Below are positions 6,739 to 56,732 of a stretch of DNA of 64,000 nucleotides, one piece after another. The notes beneath the pieces are model-generated. The model was not told where the DNA came from. It was given only the letters and a program-made list of their open reading frames with translations, and made no database searches. The translations under genes and the position numbers were made by a program. The DNA is from Candidatus Dormiibacterota bacterium (GTDB lineage Bacteria; Chloroflexota; Dormibacteria; Aeolococcales; Bog-877). The stretch covers positions 7,013 to 71,012 of the forward strand of contig JBAPNX010000007.1 of the NCBI GenBank assembly GCA_049279335.1. Reading direction: 5' to 3'. Numbering within the stretch: position 1 is the first letter of the stretch; the number at the start of each line of letters is the position of its first letter.

Positions 6739-6803
6739 CGGTCACTCCTCTTTGCGCTGGCATCGGTGTCAAGCTCCGGCCATGGACGAGGATGTCGCCT
6801 TTG

Positions 6804-7430: not shown

Positions 7431-8179
7431 GAGGCTGTCTCCTCTGATATGGATCCGTGGGGCACGACAACGACCTCGGCGATCTCGCGAGCATCGGGAT
7501 GAAGGTAACGGATGGCTACCCAAGCGATAGCCGCGCCGCATAGCTCAGCGGCGATGAACGGGACCACCGACGCTGGGCTGATCCCCGAGAACGTATTGGA
7601 GAGAGTGCGGGCCAAGGTCACTGCAGGGTTGGCAAAGCTGGTCGACGAGGTGAAGAAGTACGCCCCAGTAATGTAGGCGCCGACCGCGAATGGAACGACG
7701 GTGCTCCTGCCACTCCGCGTTATACCGAAGATGACCAGAAGCAGCCCGAACGTGGCCACGACCTCGCCAAGCCAGAGACCAGGGCCCGATCGGAGATGGA
7801 CCGAAAGACTGACCGGGGCGAGAGAAAACATAAGGTTGGCTACGATGACGCCAACGACGGCGCCGCCGATCTGGGCGGTGATGTAGGCGAGGAGCTCGCG
7901 CCGACCTAGGCCACCGAGAGCGGCGTCGACAAGCGAGACCGCTGGATTGAGGTGGGCGCCGGAGACCGGGCCTAGCGCGAGGATGATCACGGCCAGGGCA
8001 CAGCCGGTGGCCACGGCGTTCTCGAAAAGTTCGAGCCCGGCGTCGCCAGGACTCAGCCGCTGTGCGGCGATGCCCGAGCCTATCACCGCCAATAGCAGCA
8101 GGGCGGTGCCAAGAGTCTCGGCCACCGCCTTGCGCAGCAACGACGGCGCCCTCAGGTGGTGGTCGACTGGCATCGGCAA
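7427..8179 (-). CDS. Aquaporin / aquaglyceroporin (MIP family), probable arsenite channel
   Basis: 250 aa; six TM segments; two NPA boxes 'HLNPAVS' and 'FANPAVT'. Confidence 0.85.
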   Translation of the reverse strand: MPMPVDHHLRAPSLLRKAVAETLGTALLLLAVIGSGIAAQRLSPGDAGLELFENAVATGCALAVIILALGPVSGAHLNPAVSLVDAALGGLGRRELLAYITAQIGGAVVGVIVANLMFSLAPVSLSVHLRSGPGLWLGEVVATFGLLLVIFGITRSGRSTVVPFAVGAYITGAYFFTSSTSFANPAVTLARTLSNTFSGISPASVVPFIAAELCGAAIAWVAIRYLHPDAREIAEVVVVPHGSISEETAS

Positions 8180-9063: not shown

Positions 9064-9137
9064 CGTCACCTGCAACTGCATCCGCTGGTGCAGGTTCCGC
9101 AAGGACAATCACAGGACATTCGCCAGAGGCTCCTATA

Positions 9138-14385: not shown

Positions 14386-14913
14386 TCATCTTGGGCCTGG
14401 CGGCCGGTGGCCCTCGTGCGGGGGCAGTGGAATCGACTCAATGCCCGGTGGCTGATCCGGCCACACCAGCAGAACAGAACAAGGAGCGTGGTCGACAACG
14501 AACCGCGTGGTCGGGCCCAAGCTCCTAGGCCCGAGATGCGAGCGGTCACCGTCGCGCGCCGCAACCAGTAGATCAACGTCCTGGGCGACTGCTAGGACAA
14601 CTTCGCGCTCAACCCTGCCTTGTCGATGGAGAAGCTCAGCATCCTGCCGGCCCAGCCGCGAGGCGGCGGCAGCGAGCAACTCGGCCGCCGCCTCATCAGC
14701 TATGTCCTGGTACTGGTGCGGAGGAGTTCGTATTGGAAACGCCCTTCCAAGTAAGGCGCCCGCGGCTGCCTCCGCAACCTCGCTCGGATCCGACGGTGTG
14801 ACGTGGAGAAGCGCCACTCGGACGTCCGGGGGAATGCGGTCGGCCACCGCATCGACACATCCCCGCCAGGTCCCTTCGACCAACCAGAGAACGACCCGCA
14901 CGGGGTGAATCAT
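14386..14913 (-). CDS. Universal stress protein (UspA domain)
   Basis: 175 aa starting 'MIHPVRVVLW'; USP fold features 'LLVAARDGDRSHLGP..GPTTRFVVDHAPCSVLLV'; ATGA overlap with upstream permease. Confidence 0.7.
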   Translation of the reverse strand: MIHPVRVVLWLVEGTWRGCVDAVADRIPPDVRVALLHVTPSDPSEVAEAAAGALLGRAFPIRTPPHQYQDIADEAAAELLAAAASRLGRQDAELLHRQGRVEREVVLAVAQDVDLLVAARDGDRSHLGPRSLGPTTRFVVDHAPCSVLLVWPDQPPGIESIPLPPHEGHRPPGPR

Positions 14914-16160
14914 CCCACCAGCCGCAAGGAGACCCAGAGGGCGACGGTTGCGGCGAGGAGCACGGGAGGCACCGTGATAGCTCCAAGGCGCATGAACTCC
15001 GAAATAGGGAGTTCCTCCCCGCGCCTCCTGAGGACGCGCCGCCACAGCAGAGTGGCGAGGGAGCCCGCGTAAGTCAGGTTGGGTCCGGTATTTACCCCGA
15101 TAAGCACCGCGAGCACCGGGCCGACTCCCACAGCGGCGGCCACCGGAAGAAGGAGGAGTACAGCCGGGAGATTGTTGATCAGGTTGGCGAGTACAGCAGC
15201 GATGACCGCAATCAGAAGCAGCGAGCCAAGCGAGGTTCCCACCGGAAAGAAATGCATCGCCAGCGAGGCGAGCCCGTGGAGGGAAAGGGTTTTCACGACG
15301 AGCCCCAGAGCCAGCACGAAGGCGAGGAACGGAACATCGACCGCGAGCGCGACATCGCGAAGCGTGGCGCGGCGGCTGAGCACCGCTGGCACGACGAGTA
15401 CTACAGCGCCTCCCAGTGCCGCAAAGGCTGGAGCGACGTGAATGATCGACGTCGCGACGAACCCGGCTAGCGTGAGCCCCACCACCGCCACGGCGAAGCC
15501 CGCAACCCTCGGCGGTGTCCCAATGGCAATCTCGCCTTGCCCAACCAAGTCGGTAGCGAAGAAGCGCCGCAGCACCAACCATTCGACTCCGATCGCCGCC
15601 AACCATGGCAGCGCCATGGTTTCACCGAAGCGGACAAACGACAACCCGGTGGCGCTGAAGGCCAAGAGATTGGTGAGGTTGGACACCGGTAGGAGCAGTG
15701 ATGCGGAGTTCGCGAGGTGGGTGCAGGCATAGACTTGCGGCTTGGCGCGGATCCGCAGCCGAGCTACCGTCGCTAATACGACTGGGGTAAACAGAACCAC
15801 GGTTGCGTCAAGGCTCAGCACAGCGGTGATCGTGCTTGCCACCGCGAAGACGAGCGCCAGGAGCGCGACCGGTCTACCGCGGGAACGGATAGCCATCCAG
15901 GCGCCGGCAGCTTCGAACAGACCGTAGCGATCGCACATGTGGGCGAGGACGAGGATCGCGGCGAGGAAGCCAACAGTTGGACCGAGACCCCTCACTTCGG
16001 CAACAGCCTGGCTCACTGGCAAGGCTCCGAGCAGCAGCAGGAGTCCAGCCGCCGGAACCGCGACGAGGGCTTCCGGCAACTCTCGTGGTCGGACGATGGC
16101 GCAGGCCAGGGTTGCGAGTAGGAGGAGACCGGCTGCCGCCTCGGCGATGGGACCTGGCAC
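14910..16160 (-). CDS. ArsB/NhaD-superfamily permease (arsenite efflux / citrate-transporter-like)
   Basis: 416 aa, ~12 TM; 'SLDATVVLFTPVV', 'NLINNLPAVLLL' characteristic of the ArsB/YbiR family. Confidence 0.7.
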   Translation of the reverse strand: MPGPIAEAAAGLLLLATLACAIVRPRELPEALVAVPAAGLLLLLGALPVSQAVAEVRGLGPTVGFLAAILVLAHMCDRYGLFEAAGAWMAIRSRGRPVALLALVFAVASTITAVLSLDATVVLFTPVVLATVARLRIRAKPQVYACTHLANSASLLLPVSNLTNLLAFSATGLSFVRFGETMALPWLAAIGVEWLVLRRFFATDLVGQGEIAIGTPPRVAGFAVAVVGLTLAGFVATSIIHVAPAFAALGGAVVLVVPAVLSRRATLRDVALAVDVPFLAFVLALGLVVKTLSLHGLASLAMHFFPVGTSLGSLLLIAVIAAVLANLINNLPAVLLLLPVAAAVGVGPVLAVLIGVNTGPNLTYAGSLATLLWRRVLRRRGEELPISEFMRLGAITVPPVLLAATVALWVSLRLVG

Positions 16161-18804: not shown

Positions 18805-19734
18805 CTACAGGGGTGACGTCCACCGGCGCCTACGGATGGTCGCGACCACGGCGCCCGCTCCCAGTAGGACCAGGCCACCGATGACCAGGAGCGCGCCGCC
18901 CTCGGTTCCCCCCGCGCCCGTGGTCGGCGTGCCGGTCCCGGGGCTCGGAGTTGGCGTGGGCGCCGCGAGGGCCGCAATGCAGGCCGATGCGTTGATGTGG
19001 TCATCGATGAGGGTGACGTCGCCGTTTCGCGCCAGCACCCTACCGTCCACCGTGACCGCTGAGCCGACTGTGATCGAGGTCAAGGCCAGGACGTTGCCCG
19101 CAAAGGTTGGGCCGTCCAGAGCCGCCGAGCTACCCACCTGCCAGAAGACGTTGCACGGCGAGGCGTCGTCGATCAGGGACACGGTGCTGCTCGTCCCGGT
19201 GGTCAGGCTCGATCCGGTCTGAAAGACAAAGACTGCGTCAGGGTTACCCTCCCCGTCCAAGGTGAGCGCGCCGCTGAGGCTGAGGGCGCCATCCGAGCTC
19301 GTCTGGTAGACGCCCGGATCCAGGGTCAGCCCGGTGAGATCGGCCGGCTCCGTCGTGGCAGACCCCTCTCCGGTAGCCGCCTGGTCGTAGGCAGTGGTCA
19401 GGTCGTTCTGGGCATCCAGCGCTACTCCATCCGCCGTGTAGGTGGTGGAAGGTGGCTCGACGATGGCCGGTGGGAAGCCCGTGACCGAAGCATCAGGGTC
19501 GACGCCCACGTCCCCAGAGATTGTGGTATTTCCGGTGCTCGTGACTGAGGTGCCCGCCAAAACTGCGAAGGGCGCGGCAGTCGCCAGATTAACAGCGGTA
19601 GCCGCCGCCGCGGAGATTCCCCCAAAGAGGGTCAACGCCGCGGCGAGCCCTAACGCGACAGCTGCTCCAGACCATCGGCGCACTCCCACCGCGCGCAGGC
19701 TTGGTCTAACGTTTCGCCGCAGCGTAGTAGCCAT
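18805..19734 (-). CDS. Secreted DUF3494 (ice-binding-like fold) protein with C-terminal membrane anchor
   Basis: 'LATAAPFAVLAGTSVTSTGNTTISGDVGVDPDASVTGFPP' DUF3494 signature; signal peptide; C-terminal Pro/Thr-rich linker + TM + RRRR tail. Confidence 0.6.
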   Translation of the reverse strand: MATTLRRNVRPSLRAVGVRRWSGAAVALGLAAALTLFGGISAAAATAVNLATAAPFAVLAGTSVTSTGNTTISGDVGVDPDASVTGFPPAIVEPPSTTYTADGVALDAQNDLTTAYDQAATGEGSATTEPADLTGLTLDPGVYQTSSDGALSLSGALTLDGEGNPDAVFVFQTGSSLTTGTSSTVSLIDDASPCNVFWQVGSSAALDGPTFAGNVLALTSITVGSAVTVDGRVLARNGDVTLIDDHINASACIAALAAPTPTPSPGTGTPTTGAGGTEGGALLVIGGLVLLGAGAVVATIRRRRWTSPL

Positions 19735-19989
19735 CAAGTTGCCTCCAGGGATGGGGCTCGAGGCTAGTCGCGCTCTCTCGTCTCGGACCAGGCTCACATT
19801 TGGCGCCTGCTATAAGAATGGACTTCCTGGAGCGGGCGTCGGTCCGCCAGCGTACTGACGCATTCCCTGGCACCTTCAGCGTCAGGCGTCCGTTGCCCAC
19901 ACGTCACACCCCCAAGCTCGGCCCGGAGTGATCGCGGACTGCCCGTGTGGCCAGGTGGTGCCCGCCAACCAGATACTGCGCCGGACTCG

Positions 19990-36592: not shown

Positions 36593-37108
36593 TCAGCCGG
36601 AGAGGAGGCGGGTGTAGAGCCGATGGGTCGATTGGTCAAAGGCGACCAGGATCACTTCCTCGATCCGTCCTGTCCGAGCTTCCCGGATGGCCTGGACCGC
36701 TATTTGCGCGGCTAGGTGAGACGGGTATCCGAAGATCCCTGTGGAGATCGCAGGGAAGGCGATGGTCCGCACGCCTAGTTCGTCCCCCAGCCGAAGTGCG
36801 GCGTGGTAGCAGGATCTCAGCTGAGCTGGCTCCTCACGATCCCCGCCACACCAAACCGGCCCAACCGCATGGATGACCCACTTCACCGGCAGGCGGTAGC
36901 CCTTTGTGGCTTTGGCGTTGCCCACTTCGCAGCCGCCCAGAAGGCGGCACTCCGCGACCAGCCCTGGCCCGGCGGCCCGATGAATTGCGCCGTCGACGCC
37001 GCCACCGCCCAAGAGGCTCGGGTTGGCGGCGTTGACCACCGCGTCCACCCTCAAGGTGGTGATGTCCGCCAGCTCGGCCCGAATCACCGGCGCTGTCATC
37101 TTGTCCAC
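36593..37108 (-). CDS. Macro-domain protein (O-acetyl-ADP-ribose deacetylase / ADP-ribose binding)
   Basis: 'VDAVVNAANPSLLGGGGVDGAIHRAAG' macro-domain signature. Confidence 0.85.
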   Translation of the reverse strand: MDKMTAPVIRAELADITTLRVDAVVNAANPSLLGGGGVDGAIHRAAGPGLVAECRLLGGCEVGNAKATKGYRLPVKWVIHAVGPVWCGGDREEPAQLRSCYHAALRLGDELGVRTIAFPAISTGIFGYPSHLAAQIAVQAIREARTGRIEEVILVAFDQSTHRLYTRLLSG

Positions 37109-37155
37109 CAGTGTCCAACGTCCGGGGCGTGTCCGCGGGCGCTGGTCGACCTTCG

Positions 37156-37764
37156 TCAGGCGGTCGGGCCCGTCGGTCGGACCAGGAAGATCCAGATGTC
37201 CCAGATCACATGGCTAACGATGAGGGCAGGCATGGGCGCGCCGGCCGCTGCCAGTCCGGACCAGCCCGCGCCAGCAATGGTGGCCGCCCCCACCAGGGTT
37301 GGATTCCCGGTGCTGAGGTGGGCGCCGCCGTACAGACCGGCGGCCAGGGCTGCCCCTCCGGTCCTTCCGTAGCGCTCAGTCAGCGCCCCTTGCAGGAGTC
37401 CGCGCCAGAAGAGTTCCTCAGCGGGCGCGATTGCGAGCCCCAGCCGCATTACCAGCTCCGCTCGGGGCCGCAACTGGCGGAGCTGATAGATGTCACCGAT
37501 GTCCTGCTCGCCCTGGGGCATGAACGCCCGGGCAGCCCGATCCCCGATCGCGAACACGCCATAGAGCCCGGCGGCGATAGCGGATCCGAGGGCGAGGTCG
37601 ACCGGCCGCGCTCGCTGGCGGCGCAGGTCTCGGCTGTTGAAGAGTGAGCTGGCGCCAAGCGCGAGAGCGGTCGTCGTCATCCTGTGCCAGAACTGTGGCC
37701 TCGGGCCACGAAAGGTGGCTGCGAAGGCGAGGTAAGCGAATACGCCGCTGGCCGCCACCACTGC
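37156..37764 (-). CDS. CPBP-family intramembrane metalloprotease (CAAX protease-like)
   Basis: 'EELFWRGLLQ' motif 1, 'HLSTGN' and 'HVIWD' His motifs; start placed after the upstream gene stop, so the long annotated N-terminus is likely spurious. Confidence 0.55.
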   Translation of the reverse strand, partial: AVVAASGVFAYLAFAATFRGPRPQFWHRMTTTALALGASSLFNSRDLRRQRARPVDLALGSAIAAGLYGVFAIGDRAARAFMPQGEQDIGDIYQLRQLRPRAELVMRLGLAIAPAEELFWRGLLQGALTERYGRTGGAALAAGLYGGAHLSTGNPTLVGAATIAGAGWSGLAAAGAPMPALIVSHVIWDIWIFLVRPTGPTA

Positions 37765-37802
37765 GGTCGAGGGTCGCTCAGGAAGTCGCACTCCGCCCTG
37801 GC

Positions 37803-39794
37803 TCAGCTGCCCGGATGCCAGGCGATGCTGATGGCGATCCCCGCCACCAAAAGGAGGCCGAAGCTCGCGTGCAGCTGGGCCGTCTCGAGGTCGATCTTGG
37901 CGATAGCCCGCTGCTGCCCGGCGGCGCCCAGCTCGGAAGCGTTGAGGGCGCGCACTAAGAGTGGCAGGGAGAGCAGCGCCAGCAGGCTGAGACGGGGCAG
38001 GACACCGATCGCGACGGTTATCGCCAAGGCGATGAAGGCTCCTACCAGCAGGACCACGTAGAGGCGGTAGGCGAACCTGCGCCCAACCCGGATCGAGACC
38101 GTGCTGATCCCCGCCCGAGCGTCCTCGCCGATGTCGCGCCATTCGTTCCCGTGGAGGATGGCTGTGACCAGGAGCCCGATAGGAACGCTGACTGCGCCGG
38201 CCTCCCCGGAAAGGTGGCCGGTGATGGCGAAATAGGCTCCCAGCACCATCAGCGGACCCATCAGCAGGAAGACCAGGGGCAGACCAGCTGCCCGGTACTT
38301 GTACTGCAGTGGCGGCGCCGTGTAGCCCCAGCCCCCGATCAGGCCGACGGCTCCGATCACTGCCAGCGGCCAGCCGCGCACGGCGATCAGCACCACGCCT
38401 ATGAGGACTGCAATAAGGAATGCCGAGCCGGCTAGGACGAACGCCTCCCGCTCCCGGACCCTGCCGGTAAGCAGAGCCTGGCTTGCCCTCGGGGACGTGA
38501 TGGCATCAACTCCTTTGCGCACGTCATAGATCTCGTTGGTCACATTGGTGCCGACCTGGAGTAGCACTGCCCCGACCAGGACCAGGGCGAAAAGGGGCCA
38601 GCCGAACTGGTGGTGAACGGCCGCGAGGGCGGCAGCTGCCGAGACCGGCACCACCGAGGCGGTGAGGGCAAAGGGACGGGTGACCTCGACCCAGCCCCGA
38701 AGCCGGCGGACGAATCCAACGCCCTGGCCAGAGTCGATCGCCCGTCGCTGACGCGATCCGGGGGCCGTCCCCAAGGCCCCGGCCGAGCCATAAAGCACCG
38801 CCGCATCGAGCACGGCCTCCACCTGGGCATGCTCCTGAACCACCGGCTGCAGGACGGGAAGATCCATCCCAGCTTGGTTGAAGCGCTCGGCACCCGCTGC
38901 CACCTCCTCTCGGGTGCCGCAGAGCAGGAAGGCGTCCACCAGTTCGTCCGGGATCAGCTGGGCTGCACGGTGGTAGTCCTCGGCTCTCCAGGCGGCCATG
39001 ATCGGTCCGCGCAGGGCCGGGTCCATCCCGGCCCTGCGCATGGCGACGTCAGTCTGGACCGCGAGCATGTAGATGGCAAAGGGTTCGCGCTTAGCCCGAT
39101 CGAGGGCCGCACGGCGGCTGCTGTCGATGAGCGACAGCAGATAGCCCCCGATCGCGATCGAATCGGGATCCCGCCCGGCCGCGGTCGCCGCCGCCTTGAT
39201 CCGTCTAGATGCCAGCGCCACAGCCTCGATCGGCTCGGCCGGTCTGGCCAGATAGCCGTCAGCCACCCTTCCCGCCAGCTCGTGGAAGGCCCGGCGATAC
39301 CCCGCGGCCCACAGCGGTACCTGGTGCACCGGCGGGAACATTGGCTCGAGCTCAGGTACGCCTTGGGCTCCCAGAGCCAAGCGCTCACCTCGCCACAGCC
39401 GCCGCAGTTCGAGCATGGTCTGCTCGACTTTGGCTATCGCCGGCTCGGGCTGGTAGGGGATCCCCATCTGCGCTAGTCGCAGCGGCAGCGCGGTACCCAA
39501 GGCCAAGGTGATGCGTCCAGGAGCCAGGTCATCGAGGGCACTGATGGTCATAGCCAGCAGCACCGGGTGGCGGGTGCTGGGGTTGAGCGCACCCAGGCAG
39601 ATGCGCAGCCGCGGCACCGTGGTGGCGACCGCGGTGGCGTAGGTGACGGCATCTCGGGCGAAGTAGGACTCGTGGAACCAGAGCGAATCCACTCCAGCCC
39701 GCTCCGCCAGCTCGGCCTGGCGAATCGCATCGCGAACCTCACCCTGGGCGTTGAGTCCCAGACCGACCGGCCGCGCCAGCGAAGGCATCGTCAC
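37803..39794 (-). CDS. Fusion: luciferase-like (LLM, probable F420/flavin-dependent) oxidoreductase + MenA/UbiA-type polyprenyltransferase
   Basis: N-terminal ~330 aa LLM TIM-barrel; C-terminal 8-9 TM domain with 'NEIYDVRKGVD' (MenA N(D/E)xxDxxxGxD) and 'EWRDIGEDARAG' second Asp-rich motif. Confidence 0.7.
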   Translation of the reverse strand: MTMPSLARPVGLGLNAQGEVRDAIRQAELAERAGVDSLWFHESYFARDAVTYATAVATTVPRLRICLGALNPSTRHPVLLAMTISALDDLAPGRITLALGTALPLRLAQMGIPYQPEPAIAKVEQTMLELRRLWRGERLALGAQGVPELEPMFPPVHQVPLWAAGYRRAFHELAGRVADGYLARPAEPIEAVALASRRIKAAATAAGRDPDSIAIGGYLLSLIDSSRRAALDRAKREPFAIYMLAVQTDVAMRRAGMDPALRGPIMAAWRAEDYHRAAQLIPDELVDAFLLCGTREEVAAGAERFNQAGMDLPVLQPVVQEHAQVEAVLDAAVLYGSAGALGTAPGSRQRRAIDSGQGVGFVRRLRGWVEVTRPFALTASVVPVSAAAALAAVHHQFGWPLFALVLVGAVLLQVGTNVTNEIYDVRKGVDAITSPRASQALLTGRVREREAFVLAGSAFLIAVLIGVVLIAVRGWPLAVIGAVGLIGGWGYTAPPLQYKYRAAGLPLVFLLMGPLMVLGAYFAITGHLSGEAGAVSVPIGLLVTAILHGNEWRDIGEDARAGISTVSIRVGRRFAYRLYVVLLVGAFIALAITVAIGVLPRLSLLALLSLPLLVRALNASELGAAGQQRAIAKIDLETAQLHASFGLLLVAGIAISIAWHPGS

Positions 39795-39905
39795 CTCCTA
39801 CGGGAGCTCGGGTCCTTGCGTCTACAAGAAACCGCGGCTCCATGCCGTCGAGGTGAAGGGTAGTTGGTACAGGCCTCCGACTACCTGTCCCGCGAAGCTC
39901 CGGTC

Positions 39906-40550: not shown

Positions 40551-40807
40551 CGGTGTGCTCCTCTGCCCACCTCAGCCGGCCATTTTGCGCCGAAAGCCGA
40601 TGCCACCAGCCGGTGGACGGGTTCGAGTCGGCGCGAAGATCTGAGCAGTCCAAGCTACGACGTTGGCCGCAGGCAGAAGGAGATGACCGAACCGTCAGGC
40701 AACTTATCTATTGGCGCACAAACTGTTGCCGGTCCGTGACAGCCCCCGACGCTTTTGGTGGTAAACATTTCGCCTAGATAAGTCACCAAACGATACACGG
40801 AGCCACA

Positions 40808-41326
40808 ATGAAAGTCGGGGAAGGTCGGGGCTATCGCAGGAAGTTCGCGCTGGCAGCGTTGGCGGCAGTCATCGCCGCGGGTGGCATGGTTGCGTTCGCC
40901 TTCTTCACCGCGGCTGGAACGGGAACTGGCAATGGCGTCGTCGGAACCTCGACTGCATGGCTCGTCAGTTCATCGGCCCACACTGGCGGCCCACTCTATC
41001 CCGGGTCGGGGAGTGAGAGCATTCCCTTCACGGTCACCAACCAAAGCCCCGGCAACCAGGCACTGACTTCGATCACATCTGCCCTGACCACGGACGGCGC
41101 AGGTGGCGTCTATGACGTAAATACCAGCAGCTTCAACGATGCCTGCCTGGCGAGCTGGTTCACCGTGACCAATACCACTCCGACCCTCCCCGACGATCTC
41201 GCTGGCACTGCTCCTGGGCCGGCTGGGACTTACGGTGGCACAGCCACGCTCACCATGCAGGACTTTCCGATGAGCCAAAATGCCTGCCAGGGAGTCGATC
41301 CGCAGATCACCATCACCGTCAACTGA
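40808..41326 (+). CDS. Small secreted/anchored Cys-pair beta-rich protein (possible TasA/camelysin-like class), paralog 1
   Basis: RBS ACGGAG; N-terminal 'RRKFALAALAAVIAAGGMVAFAFFTAAGTG' signal/anchor, 'FTVTN' motif and two conserved Cys ('NDACLAS', 'NACQG'). Confidence 0.55.
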   Translation: MKVGEGRGYRRKFALAALAAVIAAGGMVAFAFFTAAGTGTGNGVVGTSTAWLVSSSAHTGGPLYPGSGSESIPFTVTNQSPGNQALTSITSALTTDGAGGVYDVNTSSFNDACLASWFTVTNTTPTLPDDLAGTAPGPAGTYGGTATLTMQDFPMSQNACQGVDPQITITVN

Positions 41327-41549
41327 CCTGCGGCCAAGGATCGAATTGATCGCGTGGGATGCGACAAGCCACTTCCCTGGCCCAGAGACCTGGGCCAACA
41401 AGCGTGAAGCGAATGGGTGTGGGCACGATGACGTGCAAGAGGTCGCCTACTCTTACATGTGCGCTGACCGTCGGTAGATCTGGACCGGCACTTCAGTGTG
41501 GGCGGGACTGGCCTGAGCCCCACTCTCGGCAGCTCAGGGCCGCTCCTCT

Positions 41550-42020
41550 GTGACATTGCTTCGCGTAAATCAGCAGCCACGGGCCTTGGGGATCCTGGAG
41601 AGGATCGCGCTAGCGCTTGGGGTTGGAGCAGCCATCTGGTTGGCCCTGGGCCTGACCAGGGCCACCAGTTTCACCATCAGCAGCACGGTCACCAGCTTGC
41701 CAGCATGTAGGTCGAGCGCTTTGTTCTACCCCGGCGTTCCCCGATGCCTGACGTACACGGTGACCAACCCCAATGCGTATCTGATCAAGATCACCCGGCT
41801 GTCGCTGGATCGGGTCGTGTCATCGGCAGCCTCCACTTGTCCTGCTTCCAATCTCGATCTCCGCAAGACCAATTTCTCTGGTGCGCTGACGGTGCCAGCA
41901 ACCGGAGCCAAAGCCACATCTGTTCCGATCAACATGCGCAACCAGGGGAATCAGGATCGATGTCGAGGCGCCGTGTTCCGTTTCACCTACACCGTCACGT
42001 TGCTGTACAGAACACCATGA
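41550..42020 (+). CDS. Small secreted/anchored Cys-pair protein, paralog 2
   Basis: Alignable with 40808-41326: 'LFYPGVPRCLTYTVTNPN' vs 'LYPGSGSESIPFTVTNQS'; conserved Cys pair; N-terminal TM. Confidence 0.5.
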   Translation: MTLLRVNQQPRALGILERIALALGVGAAIWLALGLTRATSFTISSTVTSLPACRSSALFYPGVPRCLTYTVTNPNAYLIKITRLSLDRVVSSAASTCPASNLDLRKTNFSGALTVPATGAKATSVPINMRNQGNQDRCRGAVFRFTYTVTLLYRTP

Positions 42021-42039
42021 GTCCCATCGGCGTTCCCAC

Positions 42040-45000
42040 ATGATGCCTTCTGGTCATCCCGATATGAGACTGCATCGGTGGCTAGGCCCACCGTTGCTCG
42101 GTGCGGCCTTCGTCTTGGCGGCAGGTGCTGTCATCGCCTTCTTCCTGGCTCTGGGCGTGGGCTTCGGCAGCGCCGCGGTGGGCACCCTCACCCCCCCGAC
42201 CGCTGTGACGGGAGCACAAACGGCCAATTCGACGGTCGACGTCAGTTGGACCGCTCCCAGTCCACTGCCACCGGGAGGCTCTCTCGACGGCTATTTTGTT
42301 GAGCGGTTTTTGGGCTCGACCCCAAGCAGTGCCTGCGGCAGCTCGCCGACTGCCCTGCTCGCCGGGTCGCTCACGAGCTGCAGCGACACTTCTGTCCCTG
42401 TTGGTACCTACACCTACAGGGTCACCGCCGTCTGGCGTTCATGGTCGGCGACCAGTAGCCCGAGCGGCTCAGTAGCGGTGCTGGCCGCATCCGCGAGCGG
42501 CCTGACGCCGGCGACGGGCACGGTGGGCTCCTCGGCCCAAATTACCGCCCAGCGCTTCGCGGCCAGCTCGGCGCTCACCGTCACCGTAGACGGTAGCGCC
42601 GCGGTCATAACCGCGGGGGGAACTACCGGCGCCAACGGGTCCTCGACGGTGACTTTCACCGTTCCGCCCGTTCCCAACGGCGCCGAGACGGTGATGGTGG
42701 CCGACTCCGCCGGGAACACGGCCACTTCCGCAACCAACTTCACGGTGAGCGCCTCGGCGACCGGCCTGAGTCCATCCACCGGCGCTGTGGGGTCCTCAGC
42801 TTCAATCCTCGCGCAGGGCTTTGCCGCCAACTCGGCCCTGAGTGTGAAGGTGGAGGGAACCGCCGCCACCATCACCGGCGGGGCCAGCACCGGAGCCAAC
42901 GGGTCCTCGACGGTGACATTCGTCCTTCCCGCAGTGCCTCATGGCGCCCAGAGCGTGGCGGTGACGGACGCCGCCGCGAACACCGCCACGTCGACCACGA
43001 ACTTCACCGTCACCGCCTCGGCTGCCAACCTGAGTCCGACCACTGGCAGCGTGGGCACGACCGGGGTCACGATCCTGGCTCAGGGCTTCGTCGCCAATCA
43101 CGCCCTCACCGTGAAGGTCAACGGCACCGCGGCCACGATCACTGCCGGAGGCACCACCGCCACCAACGGTGCGTCCACGGTGACGTTCACCATCCCGGCG
43201 GCGGCCAACGGCTCCGACAGCGTCGTCGTCTCCGATGGGACTAACTCAGCGACCTCAGCGACCAACTTCACAGTGACCGCCTCGGCCACAGCGCTCGCGC
43301 CGAGCAGTGGCGCGGTCGGCGCCTCGGCTACGATCACGGCTCAGGGCTTCGCCGCCAGCTCGGCGCTTGCGGTCACCGTTGGCGGCACCAGCGCCACCAT
43401 CACCTCGGGCGGCACCACCGGGGTTACCGGCTCAGCCACGGTGACCTTCACCATCCCCAGCCTCTTCAATGGCTCCTACGGCGTTGTGGTCACCGATTCC
43501 GCCTCCAACACGGCGACCTCGGCGACCAGCTTCACGCTGACCGCTTCGGCGACAGGACTCAGCCCGGCGACCGGCACCGTGGGAGCTTCCGCATCGATCC
43601 TGGCCCGAGGGTTCGCTCCCAGCTCGGCACTTACGGTCACCGTCGGCGGTACGAGCGCCACCATCACCGCGGGCGGTACCACCGGCGCCAACGGCGCCTC
43701 CACCGTCAACTTCACCATCCCAGCGATTCCGCATGGCGCGCAGTCCGTGGTGGTGACCGACGCCTCGTCCAACTCCGCGACCTCAGCGACCAACTTCACA
43801 GTGACCGCCTCGGCCACAGGGCTCGGCCCCACGGGTGGACCTGTGGGCACGACCGGTGTCACGATCCTGGCCCAGGGCTTCATCGCCAGTCATGCCCTCA
43901 CCGTGAAGGTCAACGGAACCGCGGCCACCATCAGCTCCGGTGGGACCAGCGGCACCAATGGGTCGTCCGCAGTCACCTTCACCATCCCGGTCGTGCCCAA
44001 CGGCGCCCAGGTGGTGACCGCCTCGGACGGCACCAATACGGCGACCTCGGCGACCAACTTCACGGTGTCTGCCTCGGCCAAGGGGCTCACTCCCGCCACG
44101 GGTGCCGTGGGAACTGCCGGAGTCAAGATCACAGCTCAGGGATTTGCCCCGAGTTCGGCCTTGACCGTCAGCGTAGGTGGGGTGAACGCCACTATCACCT
44201 CGGGTGGCACCACCGGTGCCACTGGCTCGGCCACGGTGAACTTCACCATCCCCGCGCTGCCCAATGGGCCCCAGACCGTGGTGGTGTCCGATGCCGCGGC
44301 CAACACTGCGACCTCAGCCACCAACTTCACGGTGAGCGCCTCGGCCACCGGACTCAGCCCGGCAAACGGGGTGGTGGGAGCCAGCGCGCAGATCACAGCC
44401 CAGGGATTTGCGGCCAGTTCCGTCTTGACGGTGACGGTGGGCGGGGTCTCCGCGACGATCACGTCCGGGGGAACCTCGGGAGCCAATGGGTCGTCCACCG
44501 TCAGCTTCGCCATTCCCACGGTGCCCCACGGGACCCAGAGCGTGGTGGTGACTGACGCCTCCTCCGACACGGCCACCTCGGGCACCAACTTCACGGTGAA
44601 TTCGTCGGCCACCGAGCTAAGCCCGTCCAGCGGAGTTGTGGGGACGACTGGAGTCACGATCCTGGCTCAGGGGTTCGTCGCCAGCCATGCGCTCACCGTC
44701 AAGGTCAACGGAACCGCGGCCACCATCACCTCTGGCGGTACCAGCGGCACTAACGGAGCCTCGATGGTGACCTTCACCATCCCCGCGGCTCCCAACGGTA
44801 CGGAGACCGTGATCGTCACCGACGGCTCCAACCCCGCCACTTCCGCCACCACCTTCACTATCTCTGCCACGGCCACTAACCTCAGCCCGAGCAGTGGCGC
44901 GATCGGGTCCAATGCCACCATCACAGCGCAAGGATTTGCGGCCACCTCGGCTCTCACGGTGACCGTCGGAGGCACCTCAGCAACCATTACTGCCGGAGGC

Positions 45001-46194
45001 ACGACCAATGCCAACGGGTCCGCGACGGTGACGTTCACCATCCCGGCCCTAACCCATGGCTCTTACAGCGTGGTGGTGTCCGACGCTTCGGCCGACACCG
45101 CCACCTCGGCGGCCAACTTCGCGGTGACCGCCTCAGCGACCAGCCTCAGCCCGGTCACCGGCGCCATCGGATCCTCGTCTTCAATCCTCGCCCAAGGCTT
45201 CGCTCCCGCATCGACCCTGACCGTGAACGTCGGTGGTACCGCCGCGACCATCACCGCCGGTGGTACAACCGGGGCCAACGGGACCTCCACGGTTTCCTTC
45301 ACCATTCCGACCTTGCCTCACGGTGCTCAGAGTGTCGTGGTGACGGATGCGTCGGCCAACACCGCCACCTCTGCGACCAGCTTCACTGTCACCGGCTCCG
45401 CAACCGGTCTCAGCCCGAGTAGCGGTCCGGTTGGCACGACTGGGGTAACCATCCTGGCTCAGGGTTTCGCGGCCAGCTCGGCCCTCACCGTGAAGGTGAA
45501 CGGGACCGTCGCAACCATCACCGCCGGTGGCACCACCTCAAGCAGCGGTGTCTCGACTGTGACCTTCACCATCCCGGCAGTCCCCCACGGCGCTCAGACC
45601 GTGTCAGTGACCGACGCCTCGGGCGACAGCGCCACCTCGCTGACCAGCTTCACCGTCTCCGCTGCCGCAACCAACCTCACGGTGACCAGCGGCAACGTGG
45701 GCACCTCCGGTGTCAAGATCACGGCCCAGGGCTTCGCAGTCAGCTCAGCTCTGACAGTGACCGTGGGCGGGACCAGTGCCACCATCGCCTCCGGGGGCAC
45801 CACTGGCGCTAATGGGTCGGCGACCGTGAGCTTCACCATCCCCGCCGTACCGAACGGCCCCCAGAGCGTGGTGGTGACGGATGCCTCTGGTAACAGCGCC
45901 AGCTCCGTGACCAACTTCACCGTAACCGCGTCGGCCACCGGACTTAGTCCGGCCAGCGGCGCCGTGGGCAGCTCCGCTCAAATCACCGCGCAGGGCTTCG
46001 CAGACGGCTCGACTCTGACGGTCACAGTGGGCGGGACGGCCGCCACCATCACCGCCGGCGGTACAACCGGCGCTAACGGCTCATCCCCGGTGACCTTTAC
46101 CATCCCAGCCCTCGCCAACGGCTCCTACACGGTGGTGGTGAGCGACGCCTCGGGCGACACTGCCACCTCGCCGAACAAGTTCACTGTTCCCTGA
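42040..46194 (+). CDS. Giant membrane-anchored surface protein: N-terminal TM, FN3-like domain, 14 tandem IPT/TIG-like (~94 aa) repeats
   Basis: 1384 aa; repeats with 'G..G...ITAQGF......V.VGG..A.I......G..TVTFT.P..P.G...V.V' IPT/TIG pattern; Ala/Thr/Ser/Gly-rich; three repeat subtypes cycling. Confidence 0.85.
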   Translation: MMPSGHPDMRLHRWLGPPLLGAAFVLAAGAVIAFFLALGVGFGSAAVGTLTPPTAVTGAQTANSTVDVSWTAPSPLPPGGSLDGYFVERFLGSTPSSACGSSPTALLAGSLTSCSDTSVPVGTYTYRVTAVWRSWSATSSPSGSVAVLAASASGLTPATGTVGSSAQITAQRFAASSALTVTVDGSAAVITAGGTTGANGSSTVTFTVPPVPNGAETVMVADSAGNTATSATNFTVSASATGLSPSTGAVGSSASILAQGFAANSALSVKVEGTAATITGGASTGANGSSTVTFVLPAVPHGAQSVAVTDAAANTATSTTNFTVTASAANLSPTTGSVGTTGVTILAQGFVANHALTVKVNGTAATITAGGTTATNGASTVTFTIPAAANGSDSVVVSDGTNSATSATNFTVTASATALAPSSGAVGASATITAQGFAASSALAVTVGGTSATITSGGTTGVTGSATVTFTIPSLFNGSYGVVVTDSASNTATSATSFTLTASATGLSPATGTVGASASILARGFAPSSALTVTVGGTSATITAGGTTGANGASTVNFTIPAIPHGAQSVVVTDASSNSATSATNFTVTASATGLGPTGGPVGTTGVTILAQGFIASHALTVKVNGTAATISSGGTSGTNGSSAVTFTIPVVPNGAQVVTASDGTNTATSATNFTVSASAKGLTPATGAVGTAGVKITAQGFAPSSALTVSVGGVNATITSGGTTGATGSATVNFTIPALPNGPQTVVVSDAAANTATSATNFTVSASATGLSPANGVVGASAQITAQGFAASSVLTVTVGGVSATITSGGTSGANGSSTVSFAIPTVPHGTQSVVVTDASSDTATSGTNFTVNSSATELSPSSGVVGTTGVTILAQGFVASHALTVKVNGTAATITSGGTSGTNGASMVTFTIPAAPNGTETVIVTDGSNPATSATTFTISATATNLSPSSGAIGSNATITAQGFAATSALTVTVGGTSATITAGGTTNANGSATVTFTIPALTHGSYSVVVSDASADTATSAANFAVTASATSLSPVTGAIGSSSSILAQGFAPASTLTVNVGGTAATITAGGTTGANGTSTVSFTIPTLPHGAQSVVVTDASANTATSATSFTVTGSATGLSPSSGPVGTTGVTILAQGFAASSALTVKVNGTVATITAGGTTSSSGVSTVTFTIPAVPHGAQTVSVTDASGDSATSLTSFTVSAAATNLTVTSGNVGTSGVKITAQGFAVSSALTVTVGGTSATIASGGTTGANGSATVSFTIPAVPNGPQSVVVTDASGNSASSVTNFTVTASATGLSPASGAVGSSAQITAQGFADGSTLTVTVGGTAATITAGGTTGANGSSPVTFTIPALANGSYTVVVSDASGDTATSPNKFTVP
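42460..46190 (+). repeat. Tandem coding repeats: ~282-bp unit x14, organised as an ~846-bp three-unit super-repeat
   Basis: Subtype order (TVTVGG / SVKVEG-or-TVTVGG / 'GVTILAQGFVA.HALTVKVNG') recurs about four times; many antisense ORFs in the track are repeat artefacts. Confidence 0.85.
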
Positions 46195-46354
46195 CGGACC
46201 GCCGCCCCCGCAGCTCAACCTGAGGCGTCTTAGGCAGCGCACCCGTTGTTTGGGCAGGACCGACCCTCGGAATCCTGCTGGACACGCTCATTTCTGCGCG
46301 CGATGAACGATCCACTCAGCGCTGAGCGCTTGGGCAACCTCAAAGGCGAAACTT

Positions 46355-46380
46355 ACTGACCTAATGGCGCGTTAGGTCAG
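46355..46380. promoter_or_regulatory. Perfect inverted repeat CTGACCTAA-tggcgcg-TTAGGTCAG between the giant gene and the next gene (terminator-like hairpin or operator)
   Basis: 9-bp arms with 7-nt loop; no clear U-tract. Confidence 0.35.
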
Positions 46381-46443
46381 GCGTGGCTGCGCCAGAGAGT
46401 GCGAGCATAACTGCGAATTCCGGCAAATTCCGTTCCGCGTAAT

Positions 46444-49287: not shown

Positions 49288-50199
49288 TTAGAGCTTGACG
49301 TTGGGAAGCCCACCTGACGCCACGACAAAGGAATCCCACATCCCAAGTCCCTCATGCCCGGGAAGCAGGCAGGCGATCCGGTAGCTTCCCACCTGGCCGG
49401 CGATGAAGGTGAACGAGGCTGCTTGGCCAGGAACCGTCCCCACCATGGGGTCAGGAGTCGAGGCGCCGGCGAATACCGGAGTCGTACCGCTGGCGGTGAC
49501 AACTGCGGCGGAGTGGTTGATGCTGCCCTGGTTGCTGAAGTTGACCGTCACTGTCCAGCCGAGTGGGACGGTGACCACCATCTGCCCTTTGTACTCGCCG
49601 TCGAAGTTGAGGCCACGGTTTAGGTCCTGATATCCAGCCTCCAGGTTCAGGGTGAAGGTCTTGGTGGCGGAGTTGTACGACGCCCATTGGTCGAGCGTAA
49701 CCGTGGAGCTGGCGGCCGAAGGGCTGGGGGTGGGCGACTGCTTGGGCGTGGGGGTGGCGACCGGGGCCACGGTCGGCACTTTGAACCTGGTGCGAATCGA
49801 CAAAGGGCCATTGACCCTGAGGGCGACCTCGGAGCTGGAGCTGCTGCCACTGGGCAGGGCCCAGGAGGTGAAAGGATGCGCCAAGGGATTGGTGGCGGTC
49901 ACCGCCAGGGTGGCGGTGTCTCCACAGGCGACCGCCAGGGTGTTGACAGTGCGGTCGAAGTTGTGGACCGCGCCTCCGGCCTCCGCCTTGACGGCTCCCA
50001 GCAGGTGGTTGGAATAGCTGGGAATCAAGACCGTCACCGAGCAGCCGACACTGCCGTCGGGGGTGGAGATCGAACCACTGGCGCAGCCGGCCACGGCCGC
50101 CGCCAAACCCAGGCCAATACCCAGTCCCAGCACTCGAGGGAGAGCCCGGCCGAGGCGAGGCGTGCTGCGTTCAGCCAGAGCTGGCTGGGCACCGTGCAT
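49288..50199 (-). CDS. Lipoprotein with C-terminal type-1 copper (cupredoxin / sulfocyanin-like) domain
   Basis: Lipobox 'AAAVAGCASG'; Cu ligands 'INHSAAV' ... 'YRIACLLPGHEGLGM' (H..C..H....M). Confidence 0.7.
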   Translation of the reverse strand: MHGAQPALAERSTPRLGRALPRVLGLGIGLGLAAAVAGCASGSISTPDGSVGCSVTVLIPSYSNHLLGAVKAEAGGAVHNFDRTVNTLAVACGDTATLAVTATNPLAHPFTSWALPSGSSSSSEVALRVNGPLSIRTRFKVPTVAPVATPTPKQSPTPSPSAASSTVTLDQWASYNSATKTFTLNLEAGYQDLNRGLNFDGEYKGQMVVTVPLGWTVTVNFSNQGSINHSAAVVTASGTTPVFAGASTPDPMVGTVPGQAASFTFIAGQVGSYRIACLLPGHEGLGMWDSFVVASGGLPNVKL

Positions 50200-50290
50200 C
50201 CACCTCAGGTTAGCTGATGCCGCAGCTTCGACGGCTGGCGCCGAGTGCGGGGGATGCCAACCGCGGTGCAGCGCGCTACCGTAGTGCCCG

Positions 50291-50587
50291 GTGAGTGCGA
50301 CCAACGAGCTCGCGGTCAAGGAGACCGGGACCGGTAAGAAGGACCACGTTCGTCGTGACCGGCCTTGGCAGGTGGTGGTCTGGAACGACCCGGTCACGCT
50401 CATGAGCTACGTCGTGTTCGTCTTTCGCAGGCTCTTCGGCTACGACCTGGAGACCGCCACCAAGCTGATGCTGCAGGTGCACAACGAGGGCAAGGCGGTG
50501 GTGGCGACCGAACCCCGCGAGCGGGCCGAGGTGGCGGTGGCCCAGCTCCACGCTCACGGACTGCAAGCGACCCTGGCTCGCGACTGA
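50291..50587 (+). CDS. clpS: ATP-dependent Clp protease adaptor ClpS
   Basis: 98 aa; '[26 protein letters not shown]...[16 protein letters not shown]' ClpS signature. Confidence 0.9.
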
Positions 50588-54989: not shown

Positions 54990-56732
54990 TTGGGGGCTCG
55001 GGTGGGCCTGGGAGTGAGCAGCGAGCGGCCGCCATTGGAAGCCATCAGCCCGGGGGAGGAGCAGGTCGAGCTTTACGTCCGCACCTACAGGTCGGTGCTG
55101 CGCTCCTCTGGTGAGATCAGGTTGCAGGTGTTTGAGCGCGCTCACCTGGAGATGGAGTCCTCGCTGCACCGGCTCGCCGGCGAGGAGCGACTGGACAGCG
55201 GTGCCTTGCTCTACGCGCTGCATCGACTGCCTCCAGTATTGCTGGAGCTAGAGCACGTCTGCCTGGGGCAATCCCCCCAGCAGCTACTGCACTGGCGGGG
55301 ATCGGTTCCCGAGGACTGGCTGCCCGTGGTGGCGGCGGGTCGGCGCCGGCGCTGGTGGTGGAACCAGACGCTGCGCACTCTAGGGGTGGCCCTGGCCAGC
55401 AGCTCTGACCTGGACGACCTGGTGCCCACTCTGGTCGCGGTGCAGATCGAGTGGAACAAGGCCCACGCGCTGCTCGCCTCAGAGCCGGCGCTTGACCCAA
55501 CAGAGCTGGCCGCGCTGGCGCCGGCTCGGCTGGGCATATCGGACGACGACTGGGATCGGCTGGCGTCGCTCTTCGGACCTAGGTTTGAGGCATTCCTCGG
55601 TGAGGTGGCCAGCCGGGGGCTGGATCTAGGGATCCAGCTTTTGGGCGGTTCCCAGGTCGGCTACGCCCGGGCGACCCGCGAGTGGTGGCGTCCAGTGGGG
55701 GACGTCCTCCGCCGGGAGCAGCTGCTCGACCGGCCGCTCTACTTCGTCAGCAGCAATGCCCACTGTCTGGTCAACCTGCTCTCTGGAGTGGCACGGGAAC
55801 GCGCGCCCCGGGTGGCGGCGTGGATGGCCGAGACTGGGGATCCAGAACTGCGGCAGATCGCCTCGGAACTGGCCGAACCGGGCTCGCGGCATTCAGCCGA
55901 GAACTTCCTCTACTACGCTGCCCGGCGCTGGTTCGAGGCCCACCCCGAGGAGAGGCAGCAGCGGGCACGGGAGGAGACCAGCGAGGGAATATTTCATATC
56001 CCCTCGCAGTCGGGAACCGATGTGGCCGCTCAGTTGATCGTGCTGGACCGCCTACAACCCTCCCGACTCGACCCCAGGTTGCACGCGTCGGTGGCAGCGG
56101 GCGAGGCGCTGGCCAGCTCACGCCAAGTCATCCTCAACATCCAATATCCGCTCGGACTGGGTGCGTACCACATCCTGCGCCAGGTCATGGAGGCCACCGA
56201 GCACGTCGACGGGGTCTACATCCTCGGCAAGGCCGCGACCCTGAACGCAGACATCGGCGACATCATGGTTTCCGACGTGGTTCATGACGAGCAGAGCGGA
56301 AATACCTACTGGCTCAACAACTGTTTCTCTTTCTCACAGGTCTCCCCGTTCGTGAGCTCGCGTTCGCTGCTGGACCGCCAGCGAGCCGTCTCGGTTCGTT
56401 CCACTTTCCTACAAAATCGTGGGTATCTTGAGCGTTACTACCGGGATGCCTACACCGTCGTGGAGATGGAGGTGGGACCCTACCTGGGAGCGGTGTTTGA
56501 GGCTGGGGACAGCTCGCGCTACCCTGATCGGGAGCAGGTGGACTTGACCCGTCCGGCCATGGAGGTGGGCGTCATCCACTACGCATCTGACACCCCTTAC
56601 ACGCAAGCGCGGACCCTGGGTGCGCGCGGTCTGCGCTTCGAGGGCATGGAAGCCACCTACGCCGGGGCGTTGGCGATCGCGGCGAGAATCTTGGAGCGCT
56701 GCCGAGACCCGCAGCAGGCTATCGGGGTCTAG
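54990..56732 (+). CDS. Hypothetical 580-aa protein (C-terminal region with weak nucleoside-phosphorylase/MTAN-like motif 'FEGMEATYAGALA')
   Basis: Long soluble ORF with coding-like composition immediately downstream of glgP; no confident family assignment. Confidence 0.45.
   Translation: MGARVGLGVSSERPPLEAISPGEEQVELYVRTYRSVLRSSGEIRLQVFERAHLEMESSLHRLAGEERLDSGALLYALHRLPPVLLELEHVCLGQSPQQLLHWRGSVPEDWLPVVAAGRRRRWWWNQTLRTLGVALASSSDLDDLVPTLVAVQIEWNKAHALLASEPALDPTELAALAPARLGISDDDWDRLASLFGPRFEAFLGEVASRGLDLGIQLLGGSQVGYARATREWWRPVGDVLRREQLLDRPLYFVSSNAHCLVNLLSGVARERAPRVAAWMAETGDPELRQIASELAEPGSRHSAENFLYYAARRWFEAHPEERQQRAREETSEGIFHIPSQSGTDVAAQLIVLDRLQPSRLDPRLHASVAAGEALASSRQVILNIQYPLGLGAYHILRQVMEATEHVDGVYILGKAATLNADIGDIMVSDVVHDEQSGNTYWLNNCFSFSQVSPFVSSRSLLDRQRAVSVRSTFLQNRGYLERYYRDAYTVVEMEVGPYLGAVFEAGDSSRYPDREQVDLTRPAMEVGVIHYASDTPYTQARTLGARGLRFEGMEATYAGALAIAARILERCRDPQQAIGV

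Follow-up and report, generated by a model that had tools for sequence, protein, structure and literature searches.

A conserved protein family joining a predicted F420-type LLM domain to a MenA-like prenyltransferase, with a CPBP gene as constant partner: a possible enzyme of menaquinone synthesis

Why would a membrane prenyltransferase be joined, in one protein, to a luciferase-like (LLM) oxidoreductase domain? The question is raised by a gene on a 64-kb stretch of DNA (64,000 nucleotides of contig JBAPNX010000007.1, here called the window) from a Candidatus Dormibacterota bacterium. The first-pass annotation of this DNA had noted a single 663-aa open reading frame (ORF) that joins an N-terminal LLM domain to a C-terminal UbiA-superfamily domain of MenA type, and had suggested that the two couple prenylation with redox tailoring of a quinone or another aromatic head group. 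The account that we tentatively prefer, and to which we give somewhat less than an even chance, is that the gene encodes a menaquinone-pathway prenyltransferase with a tethered F420H2-dependent reductase, which would keep the naphthoquinone head group reduced.

The fusion itself stands as described. The translation of 37803..39794 on the minus strand is one continuous reading frame with no internal stop, and both Pfam profiles score above their cutoffs: PF00296 (Bac_luciferase) matches aa 13-311 with 161 bits (E 6e-47; cutoff 27.9), and PF01040 (UbiA) matches aa 381-615 with 111.1 bits (E 7e-32; cutoff 34.2). The AlphaFold 2 (AF2) model has a mean pLDDT of 83 and consists of two confident domains separated by a disordered segment, aa 340-358, where the pLDDT falls below 50. 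The true start is probably the ATG at 39788, which would give 661 aa, since the closest homologs (P0001 and P0002) are 661 aa long and begin with MPSLAR.

An error in sequencing or assembly, or a frameshift confined to one lineage, could have joined two neighbouring genes, and a stop or frameshift between the domains had been named at the outset as what would undo the fusion. None is present in hundreds of independent genomes. The same continuous ORF was found in 120 of the 120 best protein clusters, which come from independent sources, and as one ORF in 80 of the 80 best genome loci, including the complete chromosomes AP028633.1, OY969577.1 and OY969772.1. The linker differs in length among homologs and the frame is always kept. 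A search for a split version turned up no pair of separate LLM and prenyltransferase genes: the nearest stand-alone LLM protein (P0136, 44% identity) has no prenyltransferase neighbour but lies beside another LLM gene and an amidohydrolase-like gene (the latter judged by eye from its translation), and the nearest stand-alone prenyltransferase (P0139) sits on a 1.5-kb contig with no informative neighbour. We dropped the artefact because the single ORF is conserved across protein clusters and genome loci, and regard its probability as negligible. Since both domains are conserved while the linker varies freely in sequence and length, the fusion is, on the alignments, a selected two-domain protein and not an assembly error.

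Homologs were sought among 5.8 billion clustered proteins, of which the best 120 matches were examined, and in a genome scan with one genome per species, which gave relatives in 429 genomes, of which the best 80 loci were analysed. All 120 proteins carry both Pfam domains; they are 60-96% identical to the fusion and mostly 637-729 aa long, with one partial sequence of 501 aa. The library clustered at 50% identity holds essentially one full-length fusion cluster (P0121), so the family is compact. The 80 loci are all full-length, apart from one cut by a contig end, and 54-93% identical. Their carriers are Candidatus Dormibacterota, Actinomycetota (Mycobacteriales/Frankiales metagenome-assembled genomes and the cultured Acidothermaceae bacterium B102) and Chloroflexota (Chloroflexia, Anaerolineae and Limnocylindria). 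A few loci labelled Acidobacteriota (Acidiferrales, Sulfotelmatobacter) may be binning errors. The first-pass annotation was thus right about the fusion but not in calling it unusual, given relatives in 429 species-level genomes and three phyla, and its actinobacterial framing has to be given up: the closest genome locus, at 93% identity, is on the Dormibacterota chromosome OY969577.1, which places the host in Candidatus Dormibacterota.

Domain identities and residue invariance were computed over 47 homologs. Mean identity is 67% for the LLM domain and 73% for the prenyltransferase domain, and 21% for the linker, whose length ranges from 21 to 70 aa, with long A/G/P-rich insertions in P0096, P0112 and P0120. 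By this measure strong purifying selection acts on both domains in the three phyla, all of them associated with F420. Over the whole 660-aa protein, Dormibacterota and Chloroflexota sequences (loci L012-L091) share 54-61% identity, a high value for orthologs from separate phyla; the fusion, together with the CPBP gene described below, may have spread horizontally among soil Terrabacteria. The homologs go under generic database names ('LLM class flavin-dependent oxidoreductase', '1,4-dihydroxy-2-naphthoate octaprenyltransferase', 'hypothetical protein'), and no such fusion was described in the literature searched on LLM/UbiA fusions, F420 enzymes, F420 and menaquinone, and Dormibacterota quinones. 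Both domain families are already known; what is new is their combination and the pairing with CPBP.

What does the C-terminal domain do? Among the NCBIfam models, those for MenA are the best by far (E 2e-49), and the first family listed that is not of MenA type is the GGGP geranylgeranyltransferase (2e-8). BLASTP against E. coli MenA gives 29% identity over 261 aa (E 4e-22), and the best PDB match is UBIAD1 (8djk, E 9e-22), with the same motif layout. The two Asp-rich motifs quoted in the first-pass annotation occur in the protein, NEIYDVRKGVD from aa 420 and NEWRDIGEDARAG from aa 550, and the E. coli MenA motif that it gave is correct, as the E. coli sequence does read NLANDYGDAVKGSD. The BLASTP alignment places N420, E421, D424 and D430 and N550, R553, D554 and D558 opposite the motif residues of E. 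coli MenA, and the catalytic Asp residues, whose loss would have spoken against a prenyltransferase, are kept on proper alignment to both UBIAD1 and E. coli MenA. Seven residues of motif 1 (N417, N420, E421, D424, R426, G428, D430) and eight of motif 2 (N550, E551, W552, R553, D554, D558, R560, G562) are invariant. The motifs are conserved, as had been claimed, with one small correction: the first acidic residue of motif 1 is a Glu instead of an Asp, and this holds across the whole family.

The earlier estimate of eight to nine transmembrane (TM) helices narrows to nine (aa 374-393, 399-427, 448-473, 475-488, 504-525, 530-553, 572-595, 601-624 and 628-659), of which seven are strong segments by hydropathy and the other two come from the AF2 model. 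Hydropathy and loop charge place the N-terminus and the K/R-rich motif loops in the cytoplasm. The sequence matches and the model thus identify the C-terminal domain as a MenA/UBIAD1-type, Mg2+/Asp-motif prenyltransferase with predicted cytoplasmic active-site loops, and the 330-aa LLM barrel is predicted to be tethered on that same cytoplasmic side.

The LLM domain is modelled as alternating strands and helices with a pLDDT of around 90. In a Foldseek search its top 28 matches are all F420 enzymes, with Mer (1z69) first at a TM-score of 0.89, and enzymes dependent on flavin mononucleotide (FMN), which are monooxygenases, appear only from rank 29 with much lower TM-scores. The leading NCBIfam matches are likewise all of the F420 class (Mer and a series of F420 LLM families), and a phmmer search of PDB sequences lists Mer (E 1e-24), FGD2, the RslO1 monooxygenase, FGD1 and Adf before FMN enzymes. 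The domain therefore looks closer to the F420-dependent than to the FMN-dependent members, and closest to the Mer clade. Known as the 'Type A reductase' clade, the Mer clade also counts among its members the phthiodiolone ketoreductase, which acts on a lipid (PMC8518648). F420-dependent enzymes are recorded for Actinobacteria and Chloroflexi (PMC8498797), and the range of the fusion (Actinomycetota, Chloroflexota and Dormibacterota) matches F420-using phyla, which supports the F420-type assignment. As the domain passes no curated family cutoff, we can only infer F420 as the cofactor. No F420-biosynthesis genes were found within the 64-kb window.

An oxygenase had also been considered in the first-pass annotation, and the LLM domain could indeed be an FMN-dependent monooxygenase that tailors the prenylated ring oxidatively, by hydroxylation or another oxygenation. 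PF00296 includes many FMN monooxygenases, homologs are labelled as flavin-dependent oxidoreductases at NCBI, and FMN-type families do occur lower in the NCBIfam and Foldseek lists. We consider this very improbable, since the best matches in both sequence and structure are F420-dependent hydride transferases, no flavin reductase partner is conserved beside the fusion, and the phyletic range fits F420-using phyla. The redox partner looks like a hydride-transfer reductase and not like an oxygenase.

The only constant neighbour of the fusion is a gene for an Rce1-like/CPBP membrane protein. Counts of neighbours over the 80 loci come from direct BLAST with defined seeds; ORF clustering was not used for them because of the antisense ORFs of high-GC DNA (one cluster, C2, is the antisense of CPBP). 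In 74 of the 80 loci the CPBP gene comes immediately after the fusion on the same strand, and in 2 more it follows about 550 nt downstream; 3 loci lack it, and the remaining one has no room for it. All of the loci with official gene calls (L001-L005, L092, L093) have it too. In the window the encoded protein scores 41.5 bits with PF02517 (cutoff 22.4) and contains EELFWRG, YGGAH and SHVIWD, which are motifs of the EExxxR, xxxxH and HxxxD type. Its sole NCBIfam match, to MrtS, is weak (29 bits against a cutoff of 130). This most constant of the neighbours did not figure in the first-pass annotation. No pairing of MenA with CPBP was found described in the literature searched, and we know of no CPBP protein in quinone biosynthesis.

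Relatives of the prenyltransferase domain at 35-48% identity carry other N-terminal domains, namely a domain of about 145 aa with a PNPOx-like signal, a cupin or HTH_17. A CPBP gene also lies directly behind two of those with the 145-aa domain (P0158 and P0152) and behind a stand-alone prenyltransferase (P0147), and probably behind the cupin-prenyltransferase P0191. As related prenyltransferases with another N-terminal domain, or with none, share the CPBP neighbour, the pairing of prenyltransferase and CPBP appears to be older than the LLM fusion. The comparison thus presents a variable N-terminal module on a constant core of prenyltransferase and CPBP. The 145-aa domain matches PF01243 at E 6e-5 and 4e-4 and F420-dependent PPOX families at E 1e-4, and its PDB profile matches are mostly PNPOx-fold proteins (E 0.04-2); the single-sequence AF2 model of P0158 has a pLDDT of 39, and the assignment rests on these weak profile matches. 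We call this domain PNPOx-like tentatively.

Which pathway, then, does the fusion serve? A methyltransferase of the UbiE/MenG family adjoins it in 15 of the 80 loci, in two or three phyla and in four arrangements (just upstream of the fusion, behind the CPBP gene, divergently or convergently oriented). The actinobacterial MenG passes the demethylmenaquinone methyltransferase equivalog cutoff (386 against 327), and two other adjacent MenG-family proteins pass TIGR01934. Locus L093 has a tight fusion-CPBP-MenG operon followed by a gene for a GGR-like flavoenzyme and by nuoA-D. At L092 the fusion is flanked by cytochrome c biogenesis genes on one side and by MenG with a GGR-like gene on the other, a setting that we take to correspond to the region of menA in M. 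tuberculosis (Rv0524-0529, menA Rv0534c, menG Rv0558, menJ Rv0561c). A Ddn-type deazaflavin-dependent reductase that passes TIGR00026 adjoins the fusion in 10 of the 80 loci. It is encoded directly upstream on the same strand, at about 130-150 nt, in seven Dormibacterota-type loci (L013-L016, L019, L022, L023) and close by in three of Actinomycetota (L040, L041, L043). Ddn is an F420H2-dependent menaquinone reductase (PMC8498797). The TIGR00026 genes beside the fusion in other genomes also speak, indirectly, for the use of F420. A PF04075 gene is found near the fusion in L005. The lineage of the window lacks a Ddn-type gene at the position next to the fusion.

These observations argue for coupling of prenylation and redox chemistry, as had been proposed from the sequence alone. 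The coupling is strengthened because related prenyltransferases carry a tentatively PNPOx-like N-terminal domain, and because MenG and a Ddn-type F420H2 quinone reductase adjoin the fusion elsewhere; the part of the proposal that finds no support is the oxygenase. Nothing points to the 'novel prenylated cofactor' that had been offered as one outcome, and the context suggests ordinary menaquinone. The fusion would be a bifunctional inner-membrane enzyme of menaquinone-type (naphthoquinone) biosynthesis. Its prenyltransferase domain would move a polyprenyl group from polyprenyl diphosphate onto a dihydroxynaphthoate, giving demethylmenaquinol, and the tethered LLM domain, with F420H2 as hydride donor, would work at the membrane surface to keep the naphthoid head group as the quinol or to bring it back to that form. 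It might do so by re-reducing oxidised substrate or, alternatively, by reducing demethylmenaquinone so that MenG can methylate it. The CPBP protein would act with the prenyltransferase in the membrane, in a manner not yet understood. The narrower claim, that this is a prenyltransferase of the menaquinone pathway whose redox domain is functional, whatever the exact reaction of that domain, we regard as likely.

The GGR-like and Ddn-type neighbours bear on another assignment of the LLM domain, in which it would use F420H2 to saturate one or more double bonds of the polyprenyl side chain, as MenJ does, while the prenyltransferase makes demethylmenaquinone, so that partly hydrogenated menaquinones result. 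Such menaquinones (MK) are typical of many Actinomycetota and Chloroflexota, and to our knowledge no reductase other than MenJ has been identified for the MK(H4-H8) forms, which counts for this possibility. So do the tethering of the LLM domain at the membrane surface beside a polyprenyl-binding enzyme and the presence of a lipid-acting reductase in the Type A F420 LLM clade. We nevertheless think it unlikely, as a GGR-like flavoenzyme dependent on flavin adenine dinucleotide (FAD), of the MenJ family, is already encoded near the fusion in L092 and L093, and the adjacent Ddn-type enzymes point to chemistry on the head group and not on the tail. Isolated isoprenoid alkenes are reduced by GGR flavoenzymes and are poor substrates for F420H2. 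The characterised reductions by F420 LLM and FDOR enzymes are at polarised C=N or C=O bonds or at activated C=C bonds (PMC8498797).

Several results weigh against the menaquinone-pathway reductase that we prefer. The prenyltransferase domain scores below every MenA equivalog cutoff (TIGR00751, 87.5 against 102.15; NF004749, 168.4 against 277; NF004751, 157.2 against 264), and the LLM domain below all curated F420 LLM family cutoffs (NF002619, 126.5 against 276; TIGR03857, 89.9 against 218.4). The 64-kb window has no MenG or Ddn gene, and no men or mqn genes were found within it. The first-pass annotation had asked for other men genes in the context, and tblastn with E. coli MenB/C/D/E/F/H found no convincing match near the fusion in the window or the 93 loci. 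One candidate MenB, in L031, was a lone tblastn match at 23% and was judged unconvincing. The assignment of the alternative N-terminal domains as PNPOx-like is sub-threshold, and the preferred account does not explain the role of the CPBP partner. Finally, the immediate product of MenA is already a quinol, so a reductase would be needed only given oxidation in aerobic cells.

The scores below the MenA cutoffs, the lack of menB-F nearby and the peculiar constant CPBP partner, which is not known from menaquinone synthesis, would also suit a paralog outside the respiratory menaquinone pathway, one that prenylates and reduces some other aromatic head group to give a specialised lipid, pigment or cofactor. 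Some loci (L004) have genes for carotenoid and polyprenyl synthases near the fusion, which points the same way. Its contexts are, on the other hand, housekeeping-like and unlike those of biosynthetic gene clusters, and apart from CPBP they are specific to each lineage; where an adjacent pathway gene is present, it is MenG. The very high conservation over three phyla is unusual for secondary metabolism. The nearest stand-alone relatives of the prenyltransferase domain (40-49% identity) score just around the TIGR00751 menA cutoff, and P0139, P0147, P0163 and P0152 just pass it. On balance a paralog of this kind seems rather unlikely, and a role in menaquinone synthesis remains our preferred account of the prenyltransferase.

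A wider proposal would take in the CPBP gene and the alternative N-terminal domains together. The redox domain fused to the MenA-like prenyltransferase, with CPBP, could make up a module, so far unrecognised, that acts late in the synthesis of respiratory quinones in Terrabacteria. In this module F420, through the fused LLM or PNPOx-like domain, would be required for menaquinone, and CPBP would act as a catalyst or chaperone whose target is a prenylated small molecule and not a protein. We offer this as a speculative extension with a low probability. The positions of the fusion and its parts, of the CPBP gene and the lengths of the related prenyltransferases are collected in Table 1.

Table 1. 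Features of the fusion gene and its partner in the window, with related prenyltransferases (TM, transmembrane).
Feature	Window position	Strand	Details	Evidence
Fusion ORF, 663 aa from GTG 39794	37803..39794	(-)	stop codon 37803-37805	ORF listing, stop-free translation
GGAGG, Shine-Dalgarno-like	39794-39798	(-)	5 nt before ATG 39788	read directly
N-terminal cytoplasmic LLM TIM-barrel, Mer-like, F420-type (predicted)	38784..39767	(-)	aa 10-337	PF00296, NCBIfam, PDB, AF2, Foldseek
Flexible interdomain linker, Gly/Ala/Ser/Pro/Arg-rich	38709..38783	(-)	aa 338-362	AF2, homolog alignment
MenA/UBIAD1-type UbiA prenyltransferase domain (predicted)	37806..38708	(-)	aa 363-663; nine TM helices, N-terminus inside	PF01040, NCBIfam, PDB, AF2
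First Asp-rich motif NVTNEIYDVRKGVD, aa 417-430	38505..38546	(-)	cytoplasmic loop TM2-TM3	
Second Asp-rich motif NEWRDIGEDARAG, aa 550-562	38109..38147	(-)	cytoplasmic loop TM6-TM7	
Rce1-like/CPBP membrane protein, 211 aa from GTG 37791	37156..37791	(-)	11 nt past fusion stop	PF02517
Prenyltransferase relatives P0158, P0209, P0152, P0168, P0264			~435-450 aa	
Prenyltransferase relatives P0191 and P0144			456 aa (P0191); 384 aa (P0144)	

In the window a PP2C-like gene lies upstream of the fusion, and genes for Macro, PadR and methyltransferase proteins come after the CPBP gene. The gap between the PP2C-like gene and the fusion is about 111 nt (39795-39905), and 47 nt lie between the CPBP gene and the Macro-domain gene (37108-37156). 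The PP2C-like, fusion, CPBP and Macro genes are all on the minus strand and may be co-transcribed; a scan of 36.4-40.8 kb for promoters and terminators gave no site above chance. A segment of about 5.6 kb (window 40551-46443) is absent from the same position in the closest relatives (L002/L003, L012), in which the PP2C gene directly abuts a gene of 324 aa. The segment contains two small ORFs without a Pfam match, which lie in a stretch of lower GC content (0.60-0.61), and a 1384-aa protein with six TIG/IPT repeats; from the comparison it looks like a lineage-specific insertion.

Elsewhere in the window, an ice-binding-like protein (18805-19797, minus strand; PF11999, E 5e-53) suggests that the source was a cold environment. 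An arsenic-type gene set at 5332-9108 and 14910-16160 comprises a pyridine nucleotide-disulfide oxidoreductase, an S-adenosylmethionine methyltransferase, an ArsB/CitMHS permease and a low-molecular-weight phosphatase/ArsC-like protein with a Phosphatase-like_N domain. A sulfocyanin (SoxE)-like blue-copper domain protein is encoded at 49288-50403 (minus strand), and a 580-aa DUF6909 protein (E 1e-181) at 54990-56732 (plus strand), beside a glycogen phosphorylase-like gene. The synteny around the sulfocyanin-like and DUF6909 genes is repeated in L002/L003.

Most Gram-positive bacteria and many soil bacteria have menaquinone (vitamin K2) as their only or principal respiratory quinone, and in mycobacteria MenA and MenG serve as drug targets. 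Dormibacterota, Chloroflexota and uncultured Actinomycetota dominate nutrient-poor soils, and their bioenergetics is largely uncharacterised. If the preferred account is right, the low-potential cofactor F420 would be tied to the supply of the respiratory quinone, a link so far undescribed, the fusion would be a bacterial counterpart of the NdbB/NDC1 step of phylloquinone synthesis, and one of the many orphan F420-class LLM families would gain a function. If the wider proposal of a quinone module were also true, it would give the first metabolic role of a bacterial CAAX-protease homolog and the first F420 dependence of quinone synthesis. Through its tight pairing with the fusion, CPBP gives a testable way into a large family of bacterial membrane proteins about which little is understood.

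How does the fusion compare with known systems? It resembles MenA (E. coli b3930; M. tuberculosis Rv0534c) in its UbiA fold, nine TM helices, both Asp-rich motifs and the association with MenG in related loci, and differs from it in the 330-aa N-terminal LLM domain, the near-constant CPBP neighbour, the Glu in motif 1 and the lack of menB-F nearby. It shares with UBIAD1, the menaquinone-4 synthase (8djk), a similar motif 1 (N-x3-YD-x2-KG-x-D), but UBIAD1 is a stand-alone eukaryotic enzyme that lacks a fused reductase and whose physiological substrate differs. UBIAD1 acts on the reduced (quinol) form, which would show that a reduced head group is needed. Menadione is prenylated by UBIAD1 (10.1101/2023.03.02.530834).

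For the LLM domain, Mer and the Type A F420 LLM reductases (fPKR, LxmJ) are the best match in both sequence and structure. Unlike Mer, with which it shares about 21-23% identity in the Foldseek alignment, the fusion is predicted to be tethered to the membrane, and it scores below the Mer cutoff. The example of fPKR indicates that the Type A clade is able to act on membrane lipids (PMC8518648). For the CPBP partner, PF02517 and the EExxxR, xxxxH and HxxxD-type motifs point to a putative member of the Rce1/CPBP glutamic intramembrane proteases. In eukaryotes the substrates that Rce1 recognises are prenylated; for the protein described here nothing implies a prenylated protein as substrate.

For the proposed reaction there are two points of comparison. 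In cyanobacteria and plants, NdbB/NDC1 reduce demethylphylloquinone to the quinol before methylation by MenG, according to PMC5299476, which cites Fatihi et al. 2015. A dedicated reduction of the head group ahead of MenG is what we propose for the fusion by functional analogy, although NdbB/NDC1 have a type II NAD(P)H dehydrogenase fold with FAD, use another reductant and are separate proteins. Ddn and the FDOR-A enzymes, whose split beta-barrel fold, occurrence as separate proteins and respiratory or detoxifying rather than biosynthetic role set them apart, carry out an F420H2-driven reduction of menaquinone (PMC8498797), and it is homologs of Ddn that adjoin the fusion in some of its loci.

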